IMG/VR virus record: IMGVR_UViG_2563366856_000002
Span: 1 to 35,102 of that record
From: a virus
Taxonomy: Duplodnaviria; Heunggongvirae; Uroviricota; Caudoviricetes
DNA: 35,102 nucleotides
Strand: one strand, 5' to 3'
Part shown: positions 4,320-17,367 of the stretch, one piece after another
How positions within the stretch are numbered: the first letter of the stretch is position 1
How the letters are laid out: every line of letters begins with the position of its first letter
Position numbers and translations under genes: made by a program
Notes under the pieces: generated by a model
Database searches by the model: none
What the model saw: only the letters and a program-made list of their open reading frames with translations
Told to the model about the DNA's origin: nothing

Positions 4320-4661
4320 ATGAACCAGTTTTATGTTCACGTTCGTCTGTTTGAAGCAACAGCCGAACAGACCAAAAAATTTGAAGAATTAATGCTTAAC
4401 TTTCTGTACCAGAAAACAATCAAAGAGTCTGACGATAGCTGCTGCAGACTGATTCCAGAGGGATATATCCTCAAAAGCACAATGAACTGCCAACAAATCC
4501 TTGATCAAACTTTTTCCATTGCTAACAGTGCTGGTGTTGACGCAAATATATTTGTCTGCAAATTTGAACAAAGCGCATGCTTACTTCCGTCTGCTTCCTT
4601 AGTTGGCAACGATTTTGTTCATCACGATCTTACGCCTAAGCCCATCAAGCTCGATTCTTAA
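4320..4661 (+). CDS. hypothetical protein (convergent with early-left operon)
   Basis: 113 aa from ATG preceded by AAGGA RBS; upstream TGgTATGCT extended -10-like element; 3' end overlaps 3' end of the 102-aa gene on the other strand. Confidence 0.4.
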   Translation: MNQFYVHVRLFEATAEQTKKFEELMLNFLYQKTIKESDDSCCRLIPEGYILKSTMNCQQILDQTFSIANSAGVDANIFVCKFEQSACLLPSASLVGNDFVHHDLTPKPIKLDS

Positions 4662-7079: not shown

Positions 7080-7637
7080 GTGGGTAAGCATCACTGGAAA
7101 GTAGAAAAACAGCCTAAGTGGTACGTGAAAGCTGTCAGAAAAACTATCGCAGCGTTGCCGGGGGGTTACGCTGAAGCAGCTGACTGGCTGGATGTAACAG
7201 AGAACGCATTATTTAACCGCCTTCGTGCCGATGGCGATCAAATTTTCCCGCTGGGATGGGCGATGATTTTACAACGTGCTGGTGGCACTCACTTCATTGC
7301 TGACGCTGTGGCGCAGTCTGCAAATGGCGTCTTTGTGTCTCTTCCTGACGTCGAGGATGTGGATAACGCCGATATTAACCAGCGCCTGCTGGAAGTCATT
7401 GAACAGATTGGCAGTTATTCCAAACAGATTCGTTCGGCAATCGAAGACGGTGTGGTGGAACCGCATGAGAAGACAGCAATTAACGACGAGCTGTATCTCT
7501 CAATTTCGAAGCTGCAGGAGCATGCAGCACTTGTCTACAAAATTTTTTGCATTTCAGAAAGTAATGACGCCCGCGAGTGTGCAGCTCCGGGCGTCGTGGC
7601 GTCGATTGCTTCTGGTTGTGGAGAAACTAACGCATGA
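7080..7637 (+). CDS. CII-like phage regulatory protein (CP76-type family)
   Basis: GTG start with AAGGAG RBS (in-frame ATG alternative at 7044); position after cro; sequence resembles phage regulatory CII family as recalled. Confidence 0.55.
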
Positions 7638-7972
7638 ACAGTTTAACAACACACTACCGTCGCTCGCAACTGATTGCGCTTCCTGTACCGGGTGGAAAAG
7701 CGAAGGTGGAATATTGCTATGCAGTGAATGTACCAGGTGACAGGGAAATTGTAACCCACAGCTTTGCAGAGTGGGCTGTGGGTGATTTCAACCGGCAGAA
7801 GGAGACAGTCCTTTGCGACAAGTTAACCGCTGGTTCAAAGATCACTACGGAGTGCCCGTCAGAGTCATTCGTTGGGAGCCGGAAACACAACGGGTTATCT
7901 ACCTCCGCGAAGGTTATGAGCATGAATGCTTCAGTCCGCTCGAACAGTTTCGTCGTAAATTCAGGGAAATAG
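7634..7972 (+). CDS. hypothetical protein; coding frame ambiguous in 3' half
   Basis: 112-aa ATG ORF, but an alternative frame open from 7786 to 7992 encodes a more protein-like sequence ([37 protein letters not shown]) and ends overlapping the next gene start. Confidence 0.35.
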
Positions 7973-7981
7973 AGGTCGGTC

Positions 7982-8923
7982 ATGAGCACTAAATTAACCG
8001 GCTATGTATGGGATGGTTGCGCTGCATCAGGCATGAAGTTATCCAGCGTGGCAATTATGGCCCGCCTGGCTGATTTCAGTAATGACGAAGGTGTGTGCTG
8101 GCCATCAATTGAAACCATTGCCCGTCAGATTGGCGCGGGGATGAGTACCGTCAGAACGGCTATCGCACGGCTGGAAGCAGAAGGCTGGTTAACGCGTAAG
8201 GCGCGTCGCCAGGGTAACCGCAATGCGTCGAATGTTTATCAGCTTAACGTTGCGAAGCTTCAGGCAGCGGCATTTTCTCAACTGTCAGATTCTGACCCGT
8301 CAAAATCTGACGCATCAAAATCTGACCCGTCAAAATTTGATGCGTCGAAATCTGGCAAAAAAGCGGGTTTTCACCCGTCAGAATCTGGCGGGGATCCGTC
8401 AGTAAAATCAAAACATGATCCGTCAGATAAAAAACCTTCTCGTCCGGACGCTTCGCAACCGGACACGCAGACGGCTGAACAGGATTTTTTAACTCGCCAT
8501 CCTGATGCGGTTGTATTCAGCCCTAAAAAGCGCCAGTGGGGGACGCAGGATGATTTGACCTGCGCACAGTGGCTCTGGAAAAAAATCATCGCCCTGTACG
8601 AGCAGGCTGCCGAATGTGACGGCGAGGTGGTTCGTCCCAAAGAACCGAACTGGACAGCCTGGGCAAACGAAATTCGCCTGATGTGTGTGCAGGATGGTCG
8701 TACTCACAAACAAATCTGCGAGATGTACAGCCGCGTCAGCCGCGATCCGTTCTGGTGCCGTAACGTGCTCAGCCCGTCGAAGCTGCGGGAAAAATGGGAT
8801 GAGCTTTCCCTGCGCTTATCGCCGTCCGTCAGCACGTACACAGAAAAACGCGAAGACCCGTACTTCAAAGCCAGTTACGACAATGTGGACTACAGCCAGA
8901 TCCCGGCAGGATTCAGGGGGTGA
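7982..8923 (+). CDS. replication initiation protein (lambda O-like role; N-terminal HTH)
   Basis: 313 aa; N-terminal winged-helix region; internal iteron-like DNA repeats; position after cII-like gene. Confidence 0.75.
   Translation: MSTKLTGYVWDGCAASGMKLSSVAIMARLADFSNDEGVCWPSIETIARQIGAGMSTVRTAIARLEAEGWLTRKARRQGNRNASNVYQLNVAKLQAAAFSQLSDSDPSKSDASKSDPSKFDASKSGKKAGFHPSESGGDPSVKSKHDPSDKKPSRPDASQPDTQTAEQDFLTRHPDAVVFSPKKRQWGTQDDLTCAQWLWKKIIALYEQAAECDGEVVRPKEPNWTAWANEIRLMCVQDGRTHKQICEMYSRVSRDPFWCRNVLSPSKLREKWDELSLRLSPSVSTYTEKREDPYFKASYDNVDYSQIPAGFRG
8284..8432 (+). repeat. iteron-like direct repeats inside the replication gene (putative ori)
   Basis: Seven imperfect copies of CCGTCAAAATCTGAC-like units (e.g. 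GACCCGTCAAAATCTGAC, GCATCAAAATCTGAC, CCGTCAAAATTTGATG, CCGTCAGAATCTGG, GATCCGTCAGTAAAATC, GATCCGTCAGATAAAAAAC), followed downstream by an AT-rich stretch (GGATTTTTTAACT at about 8482-8494). Confidence 0.65.
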
Positions 8924-9414
8924 GCATGAGTCTTTTGAATGACGTTCAGAAATTCATTGAAGCCCATCCGGGCTGTACTTCCGGAGACATTGCGGATGCT
9001 TTTGCTGGTTACTCACGGCAGCGCGTTCTGCAGTCAGCAAGCAAGTTACGTCAGAGTGGGCGTGTGGCTCACCGTTGTGAAGGAGATACACGCAGACATT
9101 TCCCGCGCCTGACTGAGAGAGCGCAGGATCCGGAACCACAACCAGTTCGTGAAACCAGACCTGTGCGCAATTTCTATGTCGGCACTAACGACCCGCGGGT
9201 GATTTTGTGCCTGACCCGCCAGGCGGAAGAACTGGAGTCCAGGGGCTTATACCGTCGTGCTGCAACGGTGTGGATGGCGGCATTCCGTGAAAGCCACTCC
9301 CAGCCAGAACGAAACAATTTTCTGGCGCGTCGTGAACGGTGTTTACGGAAAAGCAGCAAGCGGGCTGCATCAGGTGAAGAGTGGTATCTGTCAGGGAATT
9401 ACGTGGGGGCTTAA
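8920..9414 (+). CDS. winged-helix / PerC-like putative regulatory protein
   Basis: 164 aa; C-terminal ELESRGLYRRAATVWMAAF resembles PerC-family motif as recalled; occupies the slot where a helicase loader is usually found. Confidence 0.45.
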   Translation: MSMSLLNDVQKFIEAHPGCTSGDIADAFAGYSRQRVLQSASKLRQSGRVAHRCEGDTRRHFPRLTERAQDPEPQPVRETRPVRNFYVGTNDPRVILCLTRQAEELESRGLYRRAATVWMAAFRESHSQPERNNFLARRERCLRKSSKRAASGEEWYLSGNYVGA

Positions 9415-10067
9415 TGAGTAATAAATATTGCCAGGCGCTGGTGGAACTGCGGAACAAACCAGCCCATGAACTGAAGGCAGTGGGCGATCAGTGGCGCACG
9501 CCGGATAACATTTTCTGGGGAATTAACACCCTGTTTGGTCCGTTTGTTCTGGATCTGTTCACTGACGGTGATAACGCCAAATGTGCCGCGTATTACACGG
9601 CGGAAGACAACGCGCTGGTGCATGACTGGTCAGAACGTCTTGCGGAGCTTAAAGGTGCTGCCTTTGGTAATCCCCCATACAGCCGCGCCAGTCAGCATGA
9701 GGGGCAATACATCACCGGCATGCGTTACATCATGAAGCATGCCAGTGCCATGCGTGATAAAGGCGGGCGCTATGTTTTCCTGATCAAAGCTGCCACCAGC
9801 GAAGTGTGGTGGCCGGAAGATGCAGATCATATTGCTTTTATTCGCGGGCGTATTGGTTTTGAACTGCCTGCCTGGTTTATACCGAAGGACGAGAAGCAGG
9901 TGCCGACAGGAGCTTTCTTCGCTGGTGCTATTGCTGTTTTCGACAAGACCTGGAAGGGACCGGCAATCAGCTACATCGGGCGCGATGAACTTGAGGCATG
10001 TGGTGAGGCCTTTCTGGCGCAGGTTCGCCAGCAGGCGGAAAAACTGGTCAGGGAGATGGCGGCATGA
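9414..10067 (+). CDS. phage-type DNA N6-adenine methyltransferase (Dam-like)
   Basis: NPPY catalytic motif (GNPPYS); start ATG overlaps upstream stop (TAATG). Confidence 0.85.
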   Translation: MSNKYCQALVELRNKPAHELKAVGDQWRTPDNIFWGINTLFGPFVLDLFTDGDNAKCAAYYTAEDNALVHDWSERLAELKGAAFGNPPYSRASQHEGQYITGMRYIMKHASAMRDKGGRYVFLIKAATSEVWWPEDADHIAFIRGRIGFELPAWFIPKDEKQVPTGAFFAGAIAVFDKTWKGPAISYIGRDELEACGEAFLAQVRQQAEKLVREMAA

Positions 10068-10390
10068 CGACATTAACTCAATGCCAGCAGCAGGTGCTGG
10101 ATATGCTGATTTCTTACCAGAAAGAACGAGGCTTCCCGCCAACCAATCAGGAGGTGGCAACCATGCTGGGATACCGTTCAGTGAATGCAGCGGTGGAGCA
10201 TCTTCGCGCACTGGAGAAAAAAGGCGTCATCACGATAAAGCGTGGCGTGGCCCGGGGGATAACGCTTCATACCGCGGTGAAGGGCGACGACAGCGAGGCG
10301 GTCGGGATTATCCGCTCACTGCTTGCCGGTGAGGAAAACGCCAGGCTGCGTGCAGCCCACTGGTTACATGAGAGGGAGCTGAAAGTATGA
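10064..10390 (+). CDS. LexA N-terminal DNA-binding-domain-like protein (no peptidase domain)
   Basis: LTQCQQQVLDMLISYQKERGFPPTNQEVATMLGYRSVNAAVEHLRALEKKGVI closely parallels LexA residues 1-70 ([53 protein letters not shown]); only 108 aa. Confidence 0.7.
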   Translation: MTTLTQCQQQVLDMLISYQKERGFPPTNQEVATMLGYRSVNAAVEHLRALEKKGVITIKRGVARGITLHTAVKGDDSEAVGIIRSLLAGEENARLRAAHWLHERELKV

Positions 10391-12602: not shown

Positions 12603-12619
12603 TTTTGTGGAGAAAGTTG

Positions 12620-12967
12620 ATGCGTGATATGTATGAAGTGATGGATCGTTGGGGAGCTTGGGCTGCTTCAGACAATAGCGGAGTGGACTGGCAACCGGTA
12701 GCCGCTGGCTTCAAGGGGCTTTTACCTCATGGCAAAAAGTCCCGGATTCAGTGTGATGATGATGAGGGGCTCATGATCGATGGGTGCGTAGCTAGATTAA
12801 GAAAGTACAAACCAGAAGAGTATGAGTTAGTTATAGCCCATTTTGTGGTAGGGATTTCATTGCGAGCCATTGCTAAGAAGAGAAAGTGTTCGGATGGGAC
12901 TATCAGGAAAGAGTTGCAAACATCGCTTGGTTTCATTGAAGGCATTGTTTGCACTCTTGCCTGTTAA
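12620..12967 (+). CDS. late-gene antiterminator Q (phage antitermination Q family, small type)
   Basis: DRWGAWA...AAGFKGLLP...QCDDDEGLMIDGCVARL...CSDGTIRKEL..GFIEG matches the small Q-family pattern as recalled; located immediately upstream of the late/lysis region. Confidence 0.7.
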   Translation: MRDMYEVMDRWGAWAASDNSGVDWQPVAAGFKGLLPHGKKSRIQCDDDEGLMIDGCVARLRKYKPEEYELVIAHFVVGISLRAIAKKRKCSDGTIRKELQTSLGFIEGIVCTLAC

Positions 12968-12988
12968 CTATTCTTAACTGTCTTCTAG

Positions 12989-13873
12989 TTATATTGGGCG
13001 CTTTGAATTCGATTTAAAGCGTCTTCCACTTATTCCAGAAACCCAAATGTCTTCCTCAAGAAAGTCAAGAAGGGCTTTTATTTCTTTTTTTGATGAAGGC
13101 ATGACAATTTTCTCAACACCGCCAACTATTATGGTTTGTAAGGGGAAATTAACTTTAGCAGCTTCGGATTTAAACTTTGACATATTTTGGGGTGTTAGCA
13201 TCCCAGTCTGATTTATTAGTGTTACTTTATTTCTTATCACTGTATCTGCAACGGATTTTAGATCAAAACCTTGGGGAGTAGAAAATACACTAAGTTGACT
13301 AAATGCATTAAGTTCTTGGTCAGTAGCAGCAGAAAAATAGGACGACATGTCAAAAATGCTTCTTAGATTAAAGAAACTCTTAAATCGTATTGTATCATTG
13401 ATAATTATTGCAACTAGTTTATCATCAACATTAAAACCGATGCTATTAGCTTTACTAAAGGTAGTTTTGCTTGCAAAAAGCTTTCCAAAGAATGATTTTG
13501 AGGTATCTAAGATTTGTTTTTTGTTGAAAGTTTGTAGTGCAATAATATTGGGGTTTGCTGGCGCGTCAACACCAACAAATAATGCTTTAATATAACCAAT
13601 ATCAATTTGGCTAGGATCCCAGATAGGCACGGCGGTAGGCCTATTGACTGCGTCAATCAGGCGTGCAGAATCAGTAAAGTTTTGTATTTCAAAACACTCA
13701 CTATGTTTTGGTGTATAACCGGCATAGAATGGTATCATATTGTTATGATGACTTTCAAAATATTGACGCTGTTGTTGGAAAATGGCCGTAACAGAAGTAC
13801 TTGCTGTTGCATCAAGTTCGACTCTAACAATTCTCGTTGCAATTGTATTATCTATTACTGCAAAAAGTGCCAT
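12989..13873 (-). CDS. hypothetical 294-aa protein, second gene of an AT-rich two-gene operon (possible KwaB-like)
   Basis: AT-rich; opposite strand to all flanking phage genes; 5-nt gap to upstream membrane-protein gene. Confidence 0.6.
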   Translation of the reverse strand: MALFAVIDNTIATRIVRVELDATASTSVTAIFQQQRQYFESHHNNMIPFYAGYTPKHSECFEIQNFTDSARLIDAVNRPTAVPIWDPSQIDIGYIKALFVGVDAPANPNIIALQTFNKKQILDTSKSFFGKLFASKTTFSKANSIGFNVDDKLVAIIINDTIRFKSFFNLRSIFDMSSYFSAATDQELNAFSQLSVFSTPQGFDLKSVADTVIRNKVTLINQTGMLTPQNMSKFKSEAAKVNFPLQTIIVGGVEKIVMPSSKKEIKALLDFLEEDIWVSGISGRRFKSNSKRPI

Positions 13874-13878
13874 GGTTA

Positions 13879-14400
13879 TTATCCTTTAACATGTAGAAAT
13901 GTGTAGTCTGTTAATTGAATAACTGTAAATTTGATATCTTTAATATCAGTAATAACTGATTTAGAAATCAATACAAAACCTACGCCGGTGTCATCTTCAG
14001 CTTCGTAAAATTTATAACCGATAAGTGACAATACTGGGTTAAAGTTATAGTTCTCGGAAAAGCTGATGTAAAATAACAATGATAAATAAAAGAATAACGC
14101 ATATGCTTTATTTTCAGCAATAGAATCTGTTCCTAGGAGAGGGAATAAATAGCTTAAGAAATAATTAGTTACTTCTTTGTTAGCGGGAGAAACTGAACTA
14201 ATATTTTTTGTCAGAGGTTCAAGTTGTTTCTCAGCATATTGAATCAGGCCTATTGCTAATAACCAACTTGCTATGCCAACGCATAAGCTATATTGCATCA
14301 GCCAAACCGTATCTTTTACATATCCAATAAAAAATAGAGTTGCGCAAACAGGTGCAATTGAGCTGGCTGTTAATAATAAGCGTGCTAATTTGTTCATCAT
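13879..14400 (-). CDS. integral membrane protein (about 4 TM helices), first gene of the two-gene operon (possible KwaA-like)
   Basis: Hydrophobic segments LARLLLTASSIAPVCATLFFIGYV, VWLMQYSLCVGIASWLLAIGLI, VTNYFLSYLFPLLG, AYALFFYLSLLFYISF. Confidence 0.6.
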   Translation of the reverse strand: MMNKLARLLLTASSIAPVCATLFFIGYVKDTVWLMQYSLCVGIASWLLAIGLIQYAEKQLEPLTKNISSVSPANKEVTNYFLSYLFPLLGTDSIAENKAYALFFYLSLLFYISFSENYNFNPVLSLIGYKFYEAEDDTGVGFVLISKSVITDIKDIKFTVIQLTDYTFLHVKG

Positions 14401-14557
14401 GATATCCTTTGTACTGTTTATGCATACAGCACTTTACATCATGTACTCCAAAGTATCTATCTTGTGAAGAATCTTACACTAAATACTACAGAAAAAGTTA
14501 ACGCGTACGCAAAAAGTATTATATCGTGTTAAGAGTGGTTACTTTGCCACACAGCTT

Positions 14558-14580
14558 AAACCCGCCGTCGAGCGGGTTTT
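14558..14580 (+). terminator. tR-prime-like hairpin downstream of putative late promoter
   Basis: AAACCCGC-cgtcga-GCGGGTTT palindrome followed by T-rich tract, upstream of holin gene. Confidence 0.35.
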
Positions 14581-14731
14581 GTCATTTCTGGGCCTTGGTA
14601 TTCGTTGGGCTTGGTCTATCTAGTACTTATCCATTGGCTCGGCTTCTTTTACGTTTCCGCTTCTGGTTTGCGGTTCGTGGTACTCCCTCAATTTGCACCT
14701 CCTGTATCGGCGAGGTGAGAGATAACTACAA

Positions 14732-15058
14732 ATGCCTCATAACCCAAATACCTGGCTGGAGTTGGTCCAGAGCTGGTGGCGTGGAGACACACCACTGGGC
14801 GCAGTGATTATGTCGATCGTTATGGCTGGCTTGCGCATTGCCTATTTTGGCGGTGGTGGTGGCTGGAAGCGAAAAACACTCGAAATTCTACTCTGTGGCG
14901 CTCTGACGCTGACTTTTGCATCCGCTCTTGAGTATGTCGGATGGCCTAAATCGCTTTCTGTTGCCATTGGTGGTGGGGTGGGGCTGATCGGTGTCGATGC
15001 TATTCGTGGGGCTGCAATGAGAGTAATCGGTAATAAGTTTGGTGGCTCTAAGGAGTAA
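14732..15058 (+). CDS. S: holin (lambda S family)
   Basis: Three hydrophobic segments and G-rich loops in the same arrangement as lambda S. Confidence 0.8.
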   Translation: MPHNPNTWLELVQSWWRGDTPLGAVIMSIVMAGLRIAYFGGGGGWKRKTLEILLCGALTLTFASALEYVGWPKSLSVAIGGGVGLIGVDAIRGAAMRVIGNKFGGSKE

Positions 15059-16056: not shown

Positions 16057-16385
16057 AGCAGTAAAGCGGACGGACCGTGGCAAGTAGCGCCAATGCAGCA
16101 GTCATGATACTGCCCAGAATACCCAAAGTTGCGGGTAGCCAGTCTTAGGTAAAAAGCTGAGGGTGTACTGGTGAGGGGTAACGGGAAGAAGCTCACTGGT
16201 ACTCTAGGCTGATCGCCACTCAGCTTCCGGTTAGTGGTGAGGGATTCTCGAGATCCCCCTAACACATGGCCTCAAGGGCATGAGCGCGGCTACTGCGAGA
16301 GCGTGAGGGGCATTACAGCAGCCATCCACTGGTGCCTACGCTAACTCTTTTGTTTACAATCGTCTCATTTAAATGTGAGGTGATT

Positions 16386-16865
16386 ATGGACGCAGATTTT
16401 ATATCATTTGAGGCAATGCTTGCTGCTAAAGATTCTGCACAGTGGGCTTATTGGGGGATGTGGATCGCATTATTTTCAGCAATTACTACATTTTTTGCCA
16501 TGGTAATAGGTGGGATTACGATTTTTAGTTGGCGTAAGCAAGAAGCTTTAAAAGATAAAAAGGCATTTGTTTTATCTGTCCTGAAGTTTCAAAAAACTGT
16601 TGGGCTTGGACCTGAGGCTTATCAATTATGTTCTGTACCCGATAACGATCCCTCTCATCCATTTTGGACTCTAACTCATTCATTAACAGATGTTTATGAA
16701 GCAGCATTGTTAATGACTGCTAAGAAAGATCGGGCGAAGGCAACTCGCATTTATACGATGCTTGATGAAATATATGAGTCCTTACATCAAGGTCGAATCA
16801 ACAGCAGGACGGCAACAGCTCGGATCTTAGCAATACAAAAAGACTCTTTTTTTGAAGATTATTAA
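16386..16865 (+). CDS. membrane-anchored hypothetical protein (single N-terminal TM), AT-rich single-gene insert
   Basis: 159 aa from ATG with GAGG RBS; TM segment WAYWGMWIALFSAITTFFAMVIGGITIF; followed by intrinsic terminator. Confidence 0.55.
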   Translation: MDADFISFEAMLAAKDSAQWAYWGMWIALFSAITTFFAMVIGGITIFSWRKQEALKDKKAFVLSVLKFQKTVGLGPEAYQLCSVPDNDPSHPFWTLTHSLTDVYEAALLMTAKKDRAKATRIYTMLDEIYESLHQGRINSRTATARILAIQKDSFFEDY

Positions 16866-16878
16866 ATACTGATTCCTC

Positions 16879-16898
16879 ACCGCCTCCGGGCGGTTTTT
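16879..16898 (+). terminator. rho-independent terminator
   Basis: ACCGCC-tccg-GGCGGT stem-loop followed by TTTTT. Confidence 0.65.
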
Positions 16899-17015
16899 AA
16901 TTATCATTACCATGGGTGCATTCACGTAACAGTAGTGTCACTGATATTCAGAGAATGCCTGTGATATTGCTACTGCTATCGGGTAAAATGTAGCCCTTGC
17001 AAATAGGAGGGCAGA

Positions 17016-17318
17016 ATGTCTGAACTGAATTATGAAGCAATAGGCCGCTGCAAAATCCTTAATGAAAAGATCAAAGATCTTCATGCTGAACGAATGAAAG
17101 CTATTGGTGATTTACGTACTGCTGTCTATGCCCTTCATCAGAAAGGGAATGTAAACCTCATCCCACCAGAAATTGTTGAATTCAACCCCCAATCGCTTAC
17201 ATCCCTTGTAGAGAAGGTTGGTCACTATGATGGTGAGCTGATGCGAGCTGTACATGAGTACAACAACTGGTGTGTAGAAGCAGGCGAGAAACCCGTAAAA
17301 CTTATAAAGCTAGACTGA
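17016..17318 (+). CDS. hypothetical 100-aa protein
   Basis: ORF with GGAGG RBS, followed by strong terminator; no family recognised. Confidence 0.5.
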   Translation: MSELNYEAIGRCKILNEKIKDLHAERMKAIGDLRTAVYALHQKGNVNLIPPEIVEFNPQSLTSLVEKVGHYDGELMRAVHEYNNWCVEAGEKPVKLIKLD

Positions 17319-17343
17319 AACAACAAATTTATGCAAATCATTA

Positions 17344-17367
17344 GCCTCGCACATGCGGGGCTTTTTT
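17344..17367 (+). terminator. rho-independent terminator
   Basis: GCCTCGC-acat-GCGGGGC stem-loop followed by TTTTTT. Confidence 0.65.

Follow-up and report, generated by a model that had tools for sequence, protein, structure and literature searches.

The 35,102-nt viral sequence analysed here (IMG/VR record IMGVR_UViG_2563366856_000002, positions 1 to 35,102; Caudoviricetes), which we call the window, very probably carries an intact operon of the Kiwa defence system, kwaAB. The operon belongs to a divergent 'short-KwaB' lineage of mobile elements and forms antisense cargo in the interval that separates the antiterminator gene Q from the late promoter in an Escherichia coli prophage that resembles Shigella phages SfII and SfIV. 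The Kiwa identity itself is not new and adds little, because public annotation already has it: PADLOC holds models that match the pair, and RefSeq uses the names 'KwaA family protein' (in its more recent records) and 'Kiwa anti-phage protein KwaB-like domain-containing protein'. What the analysis adds is a conserved SOS box in front of the operon, which points to control by LexA, together with a fixed hotspot between Q and the late promoter pR′ and the unannotated cassettes of that slot; the Kiwa member is itself highly divergent.

The operon comprises two minus-strand open reading frames (ORFs). The first gene, kwaA (13879–14400), encodes a 173-aa inner-membrane protein with four predicted transmembrane helices and a cytoplasmic beta domain, and the second, kwaB (12989–13873), encodes a soluble 294-aa protein in which an alpha/beta domain at the N terminus is followed by DUF4868 at the C terminus; a Kyte–Doolittle scan found no hydrophobic segment in KwaB. 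In most homologues kwaA starts at the second Met of the window ORF, which gives 172 aa. The genes are separated by 5 nt (TAACC). On our reading of the sequence, each is preceded by an AAGGA ribosome-binding site, that of kwaA at 14405–14409 (minus strand) and that of kwaB inside the final codons of kwaA, and this overlap, together with the short gap, suggests that translation of kwaB is coupled to that of kwaA. In pairs with unsaturated synonymous divergence (dS), the ratio of nonsynonymous to synonymous substitution rates (dN/dS) was 0.02–0.03 for kwaA and 0.10 for kwaB; dS was saturated in most pairs, and the ratio is informative for the closest pairs only. Both genes are intact and under purifying selection. 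Directly past the kwaB stop codon, within the 3′ end of Q, the minus strand can form a long hairpin (around 12905–12965; −26.8 kcal/mol, z = −3.8 against shuffles) that lacks a U-tract and might act as a buffer between the convergent Q and kwaB transcripts. Rfam and tRNA scans found no credible RNA gene in the region.

Profile searches place both proteins in the Kiwa families. KwaA matches the PADLOC model PDLC00216 over residues 1–172 (1.9e-83; model of 173 positions) as well as 11 further PADLOC KwaA models, and KwaB matches PDLC00225 over its full length (residues 1–294; 2.3e-150) and Pfam PF16162 (KwaB/DUF4868) over residues 108–281 (32 bits; gathering score 26.3). In PHROGs, both proteins fall in families of unknown function. 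Predicted structures tell the same story as the PADLOC and Pfam profiles. AlphaFold models built on homologue alignments had a predicted local distance difference test (pLDDT) score of 76.4 for KwaA and 80.6 for KwaB. The KwaA model has four long helices (residues 2–28, 32–59, 76–96 and 98–114), a beta element in the loop past helix two (62–72) and four C-terminal strands (130–136, 141–146, 157–162 and 167–170), and thereby reproduces the published architecture (PMC11785009), in which four transmembrane helices are combined with a beta-strand in intracellular loop one and further strands at the C terminus; a Kyte–Doolittle scan marks just the first two helices as strongly hydrophobic. Foldseek matched the KwaA model to solved KwaA alone (9mrg, 9mrx and 9mrr; E 2e-6 to 3e-5, probability 1.0, template-modelling (TM) score 0.54–0.72, 16–19% identity). 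For KwaB, the top six matches in the PDB were all KwaB (9nyu, 9mrx and 9mtn; E 2.6e-6 to 3.6e-5, probability 1.0, full-length alignments of 307–321 columns, 11–14% identity), and the next match had an E value of 0.93. The original prediction, made from the letters alone, had described a protein with about four transmembrane helices followed by a soluble one and had guessed at Kiwa while leaving room for a distinct system; the KwaA, DUF4868 and PADLOC profiles and the folds bear out the guess and speak against a distinct system.

Several observations weigh against a simple equation of the pair with the Kiwa systems studied so far. KwaA scores 46 bits on the NCBIfam KwaA equivalog model NF041622, the cut-off of which is 100 bits, so that on sequence grounds it is a member of the family and not an equivalog of the O55:H7-type prototype. 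Sequence searches of the PDB with KwaA, with KwaB and with a 38-sequence KwaB profile gave no meaningful match, and the link to the solved Kiwa structures is therefore visible by fold only. The KwaB fold match is itself loose (TM score just 0.47–0.54, root-mean-square deviation 8–10 Å), residues 125–137 of the KwaB model are of low confidence, and identity to the solved Kiwa proteins is 11–19%. Among the Kiwa systems that have been tested (ECOR8, ECOR12, ECOR49, D9 and Ralstonia), none could be placed in this lineage, and none of the 33 genomes that carry the window allele is an ECOR strain. Judged by profile and predicted fold together, the pair is nonetheless almost certainly a real Kiwa system, albeit one whose sequence is far from the structurally studied branch, and by homology it is likely that this lineage defends in the way published Kiwa does.

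The lineage is large and mobile. A KwaB profile search at E ≤1e-3 against representatives of clusters at 50% identity retrieved 1,037 representatives of the short-KwaB branch, nearly all of 285–300 aa, and a search of viral contigs with a KwaB alignment yielded 64 loci at 38–100% KwaB identity. In these loci kwaA lies beside kwaB in 61 cases, the remaining three being cut at a contig end, and a Q homologue (49–100% identical) lies tail-to-tail with kwaB in 55, an arrangement that persists to about 45% KwaB identity; at the far end of the Q-linked loci, identity to the window proteins falls to, for example, 47% for KwaB, 68% for KwaA and 83% for Q. Relative to the window, KwaB diverges two to four times faster than KwaA across loci L004–L067, and the adjacent Q plateaus at around 83–90% identity. 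Such a pattern could reflect an arms race on KwaB, at which Gam-like inhibitors are aimed, or else cassettes that move from one Q background to another. P4-like satellites hold the relatives furthest from the window (KwaA 49%, KwaB 39%), between psu/delta and the integrase gene; Kiwa has already been listed in the P4 psu–int hotspot (Rousset et al. 2022, PMC9122126).

At the other end of the scale, 33 of 5,426 complete E. coli genomes contain a 1.6-kb segment with at least 99% identity to the window, and RefSeq annotates the pair as Kiwa in them; the match always runs on into the neighbouring Q gene. The allele is conserved to the same degree (at least 99%) in about 20 viral contigs. The surrounding prophage, which is identical in strain H1827/12, combines a lambdoid early and lysis region with a Mu-like contractile tail, as in SfII and SfIV. 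No deposited phage has this E. coli allele, and a DNA-level search of such phages matched the flanks only; the arrangement does recur in a Klebsiella phage, whose KwaB is 47% identical. Another 38 E. coli genomes hold a distant relative of the cassette. Two of these (S1 and TUM12355) were examined and have a satellite-type copy that adjoins an integrase gene, and the TUM12355 copy also lies beside tRNA-Leu and psu.

Immediately upstream of kwaA, the window contains a putative LexA box at 14412–14431 (minus strand), which reads TGCTGTATGCATAAACAGTA on the kwaA strand and ends 11 nt upstream of the kwaA ATG. It agrees with the E. coli SOS-box consensus TACTG(TA)5CAGTA (PMC12527982) at 16 of 20 positions. 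When the 260 nt upstream of kwaA were aligned across 18 lineages, little was conserved except this palindrome beside the ribosome-binding site. An exact TACTGT-N8-ACAGT lies 11–24 nt upstream of kwaA at 58 of 62 loci, in 24 distinct versions, and the loci that bear it range over three kinds of element and from 39 to 100% in KwaB identity. Across the lineage, the consensus reads TACTGTAT-A-[AT]-A-[CT]-A-[AT]-ACAGTA. Of the four loci without an exact box, one is cut at a contig end, one has a half-box at a rearrangement, one has a CCAG variant and one, itself decayed, has a 1-nt deletion. The Klebsiella phage and the P4-satellite copies have the box too, and in the satellites it is the sole match to the CTGT-N8-ACAG core within 10 kb. 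The core occurs twice in the window, at the box and at 4347–4362 (CTGTTTGAAGCAACAG); this second match, which lies inside or near a yfdQ-like early gene judging by offset from the annotated record, is probably due to chance.

The box goes with this Kiwa lineage. It is missing from all 11 other cargo classes of the same slot and from SfII, and we rejected on these grounds the idea that it is a feature of the slot; it is also missing from the Kiwa of a Pseudomonas Pf phage (33% identity). We likewise rejected a reading of the palindrome as an operator of the phage repressor CI, because the immunity region has no match to the core; the presence of the box in P4-like satellites (L059–L063) and in prophage contigs with different flanking genes also disfavours a CI operator. 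On the kwaA side, a sigma-70 promoter is predicted at 14431–14459 (minus strand), with a −35 element TAGATA (14454–14459), a 17-nt spacer and a −10 element TAAAGT (14431–14436), and kwaA transcription would then begin near 14424. Candidate −10 elements occur at the same place in other lineages (TATAAT, TAAAAT, TACAAT and TATACT), and in every lineage the best of them abuts or overlaps the box. From the conserved box and its overlap with the predicted promoter, we infer a LexA-repressed kwaAB promoter, and we consider it reasonably probable that LexA controls the operon.

The prophage itself encodes a second protein that could recognize such a box. A plus-strand gene at 10064–10390 specifies a 108-aa protein with a LexA DNA-binding domain (DBD; Pfam PF01726, 2.9e-19) and without an S24 cleavage domain. 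It aligns with residues 2–68 of E. coli LexA (1lea, E 1e-15), and its recognition helix reads RSVNAAVEHL, compared with RSPNAAEEHL in E. coli LexA. Its sequence suggests that it could be a second binder of the box or an uncleavable competitor for SOS boxes during lytic growth. We rejected a specific tie between this gene and Kiwa, as it is a common backbone gene of the phage group.

Two readings of the palindrome therefore have to be weighed. Instead of answering to host LexA, a functional Kiwa operon might carry it as the operator of another protein, or as a structural or promoter element, and the most plausible other binder is the phage's own uncleavable LexA-DBD protein, which would silence Kiwa in lytic growth. 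The near-intact recognition helix of that protein and its lack of an S24 domain lend weight to this idea. Two points count against control by LexA: the consensus promoter scan did not call the kwaAB promoter, and the preprint on the Kiwa mechanism (PMC11785009) is silent on LexA and SOS. A third point also favours the other reading: as we understand that preprint, the sensor must already be in place in the membrane when a phage attaches, which fits poorly with tight repression by SOS. The box may thus only damp expression or serve another protein. Yet the LexA-DBD gene was found in 29 of the 64 Kiwa loci and is missing, within the available sequence, from more than half of those that bear the box. 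Its frequency beside other cargos is about the same: it occurs in 52 of 80 Q loci, and only 17 of these have Kiwa by our tally. The IMG/VR P4-like satellite loci L059–L063 yielded no copy. Host LexA is the sole factor common to all box-bearing elements, and it stays the common denominator because the LexA-DBD gene is neither tied to Kiwa nor found in the satellites; moreover, the consensus of the box is that of the E. coli SOS box. We accordingly regard a Kiwa operon free of host LexA control as unlikely and retain LexA as the probable regulator.

Other explanations concern the proteins themselves. In lambda, a small RexB with four transmembrane helices and a soluble RexA of about 280 aa are expressed from the prophage, and their similarity in size and layout raises the question of whether the window pair could be another membrane-plus-soluble system, such as a RexAB-like abortive-infection or superinfection-exclusion module, that resembles Kiwa in layout only. 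This is very improbable: the PADLOC scan gave KwaA and KwaB models and nothing else at E ≤1, the PDB fold searches returned KwaA and KwaB only at E <0.001, and the gene for the membrane protein comes first, as in Kiwa. We give even less credence to the notion that the operon has lost its activity and persists only as a passenger of the prophage. A few related loci have indeed decayed, with a fragmented kwaB in L066 and L067 and, in L067, the box with the 1-nt deletion; the window ORFs, by contrast, match their hidden Markov models over the full length, their dN/dS is far below 1, and the allele is conserved across the 33 genomes and the viral contigs described above. An intact Kiwa operon is the reading that we carry forward.

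The cassette that holds the operon (12968–14497, minus strand; GC content 0.34) begins after the stop codon of Q and ends where a conserved block, which we assign to the late promoter, sets in. Over 12968–14530 the GC content is 0.34, compared with 0.51 in the remaining window; in sliding windows it is 0.31–0.36 in the cassette, 0.51–0.57 upstream and around 0.48–0.52 just downstream. Q (12605–12967, plus strand; Pfam PF06530 Phage_antitermQ, 1.5e-45) is convergent with kwaB, the two stop codons being 21 nt apart, and the holin gene (14732–15058; Pfam Phage_holin_3_1) lies on the other side, followed by endolysin and spanin genes. Both kwa genes are antisense to Q and the holin gene. ORF calls and base composition thus agree with the two AT-rich minus-strand genes, 5 nt apart and antisense to their flanks, that had been described from the letters. 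A second AT-rich island (around 16250–17350, GC 0.39–0.42) lies between the spanin and HNH/terminase genes; its ORFs at 16332–16865 (177 aa, hydrophobic N terminus) and 17016–17318 (100 aa) matched nothing convincingly in Pfam or PADLOC, and the island may be another moron slot.

Past the cassette, homology to SfII picks up again at around 14495–14500. The block that follows consists of TTAACGCGTACGCAAAAAGTATTATATCGTGTTAAGAGTGG and then a GC-rich hairpin with a T-run (14558–14590), and it is kept both in SfII and at Kiwa loci with KwaB 47% identical. On the strength of its conservation, we annotate 14498–14590 (plus strand) as a candidate Q-dependent late promoter pR′ with an intrinsic terminator. 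Read from the sequence, the candidate promoter has a −35 element TTAACG (14498–14503), a −10 element TATCGT (14522–14527) and a conserved TGnTAAGAG (14527–14535); the terminator, a hairpin at 14558–14579 followed by the T-run, was called by a terminator scan. Late transcription would start near 14534 and, when terminated, give a leader of about 50 nt that ends near 14590. The consensus promoter scan did not call the candidate pR′, and neither hexamer is strong. The stretch 14512–14580, which overlaps the predicted short late-promoter leader and the terminator, has a weak Rfam match to the Pseudomonas small RNA P9 (18.4 bits, E 0.9, far under the gathering score) that alone is not significant.

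Evidence for the assignment of the block comes from an Stx2 phage of the same Q family, Stx2a_WGPS2 (L152), in which Q is followed by an antisense two-gene cassette (gp26/gp27 at 7384–8947), the block with a canonical terminator (8996–9080) and then, all on the sense strand, a methyltransferase gene, tRNAs and stxAB. The antisense cassette is PADLOC-negative, and the phage has two separate cargo positions. The stx genes are transcribed from the Q-dependent late promoter pR′. Because the block precedes stxAB in this phage, it is best read as pR′ followed by tR′, and as stxAB lies beyond it, the Kiwa slot (Q to pR′) differs from the stx slot (pR′ to S). The original prediction had located the pair between Q and the late promoter and compared the site with that of Shiga toxin genes; the location fits, with pR′ assigned by conservation, but the comparison is imprecise, as stx sits on the far side of the block.

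We surveyed the slot in the 80 viral contigs whose Q homologues are most similar to the window's. The block core ACGCGTACGC lies 974–3751 nt downstream of Q in 77 of these 80 Q loci and never adjoins Q. The DNA between Q and the block falls into about 11 size classes, all of them antisense and with a GC content of 0.30–0.39, and the cargos contain one to three genes. Kiwa occupies the slot in 17 of the 80 loci; other cargos include PDC-M53 (as in SfII), PDC-S60 and an MBL/LmuA-like cassette. Six cargo classes have no PADLOC 2.0 match, and in view of their slot companions Kiwa, PDC-M53 and PDC-S60 we propose them as candidate defence systems. PADLOC-negative cassettes lie at L133 6398–7282, L099 6392–7720, L082 1085–2368, L093 6379–7984, L084 6386–8113 and L087 6352–8744. 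The literature that we searched, with incomplete coverage, contains no earlier description of the ACGCGTACGC motif or of the hotspot adjacent to Q.

Comparison with known systems sharpens the picture. The window operon has the kwaA-first two-gene order, the KwaA design of four transmembrane helices plus a beta domain and the KwaB design of an alpha/beta domain plus DUF4868 in common with the solved Kiwa systems (E. coli O55:H7 RM12579 and ECOR; 9mrg, 9mrr, 9mrx, 9mtn and 9nyu; Doron 2018; Zhang, Todeschini et al., PMC11785009). It differs in its shorter KwaB (294 aa, compared with about 315) and in the conserved LexA box of its lineage, which is absent from the preprint's account. The Kiwa of P4 satellites (PMC9122126) belongs to the same lineage, likewise sits in a defence hotspot of a mobile element and has the LexA box upstream of kwaA; the satellite, however, is at tRNA-Leu, has other neighbours and lacks an adjoining Q or late promoter. 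The PDC-M53 cassette of SfII (SfII_49/50) and the other slot cargos share the position, the antisense orientation and the AT-richness of the Kiwa cassette, but their proteins are unrelated and they carry no LexA box. With stxAB of Stx2 prophages, finally, Kiwa has in common a place between Q and the lysis genes in a lambdoid late region, and both this Q family and the conserved block recur in some Stx2 phages; stx, however, lies downstream of the block in the sense orientation, whereas Kiwa lies upstream of it, antisense and with its own predicted promoter.

LexA-repressed genes are familiar from other mobile elements, among them the colicin operons and the antirepressors of coliphage 186 and the Gifsy prophages. 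As in those cases, expression of a mobile-element gene would be tied to DNA damage by an SOS box of the host that overlies its promoter. LexA and SOS go unmentioned in the papers on P2 and P4 hotspots, and the searched literature, again with incomplete coverage, holds no report of a Kiwa-type defence system under LexA control, no prior description of a link between Kiwa and LexA and none of an SOS-controlled prophage defence of the Kiwa type.

In the solved O55:H7 and ECOR systems, KwaA tetramers and KwaB dimers form an inner-membrane supercomplex, and Kiwa can be inhibited by DNA mimics of the Gam type (PMC11785009). By homology, KwaA tetramers of the window lineage, with their four transmembrane helices and a cytoplasmic beta-barrel, would dock KwaB dimers at the inner membrane. 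KwaA would sense when the membrane is disturbed by an attaching phage, by DNA ejection or by conjugation; the DUF4868 domain of KwaB would bind the incoming DNA, and DNA-bound KwaB would stall replication and late transcription without killing the cell. As the prophage's own DNA does not arrive across the envelope, it should leave the system untriggered. In unstressed lysogens, host LexA would hold kwaAB expression low from an operator that covers the predicted −10 element and start region, and RecA-stimulated cleavage of LexA would raise it. The prophage repressor is a protein with a helix-turn-helix domain and a Peptidase_S24 domain, and with a repressor of this type the same RecA signal that derepresses Kiwa should cleave it and induce the prophage.

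From these elements we put forward a wider proposal, which we hold tentatively and regard as somewhat short of probable: that mobile-element Kiwa is inducible by DNA damage, that the LexA operator has travelled with the cassette and that the system guards the induced cell against competitors. SOS firing would coincide both with induction of the carrier prophage and with incoming conjugative or phage DNA that provokes the SOS response, so that Kiwa would chiefly protect the induced, virus-producing cell. Also part of the proposal is a role for the uncleavable LexA-DBD protein, which could reset SOS-box promoters, that of kwaAB included, during lytic growth.

These findings bear on Kiwa biology in several ways. 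The mechanistic and structural work on Kiwa that we found concerns proteins 11–19% identical to this pair, and the short-KwaB branch, with about 1,000 clusters at 50% identity, would be a good test of how general the model of membrane sensing and DNA clamping is. With a conserved gene at one boundary and a conserved 10-mer at the other, the Q-to-pR′ slot is a well-delimited hotspot and offers a cheap source of candidate defence systems, with at least six PADLOC 2.0-negative classes, one of them in an Stx2 phage. If the regulatory reading is true, 'native-promoter' clones of Kiwa might look inactive unless SOS is induced, and the conserved SOS box on a defence operon would tie immunity to DNA damage and prophage induction.

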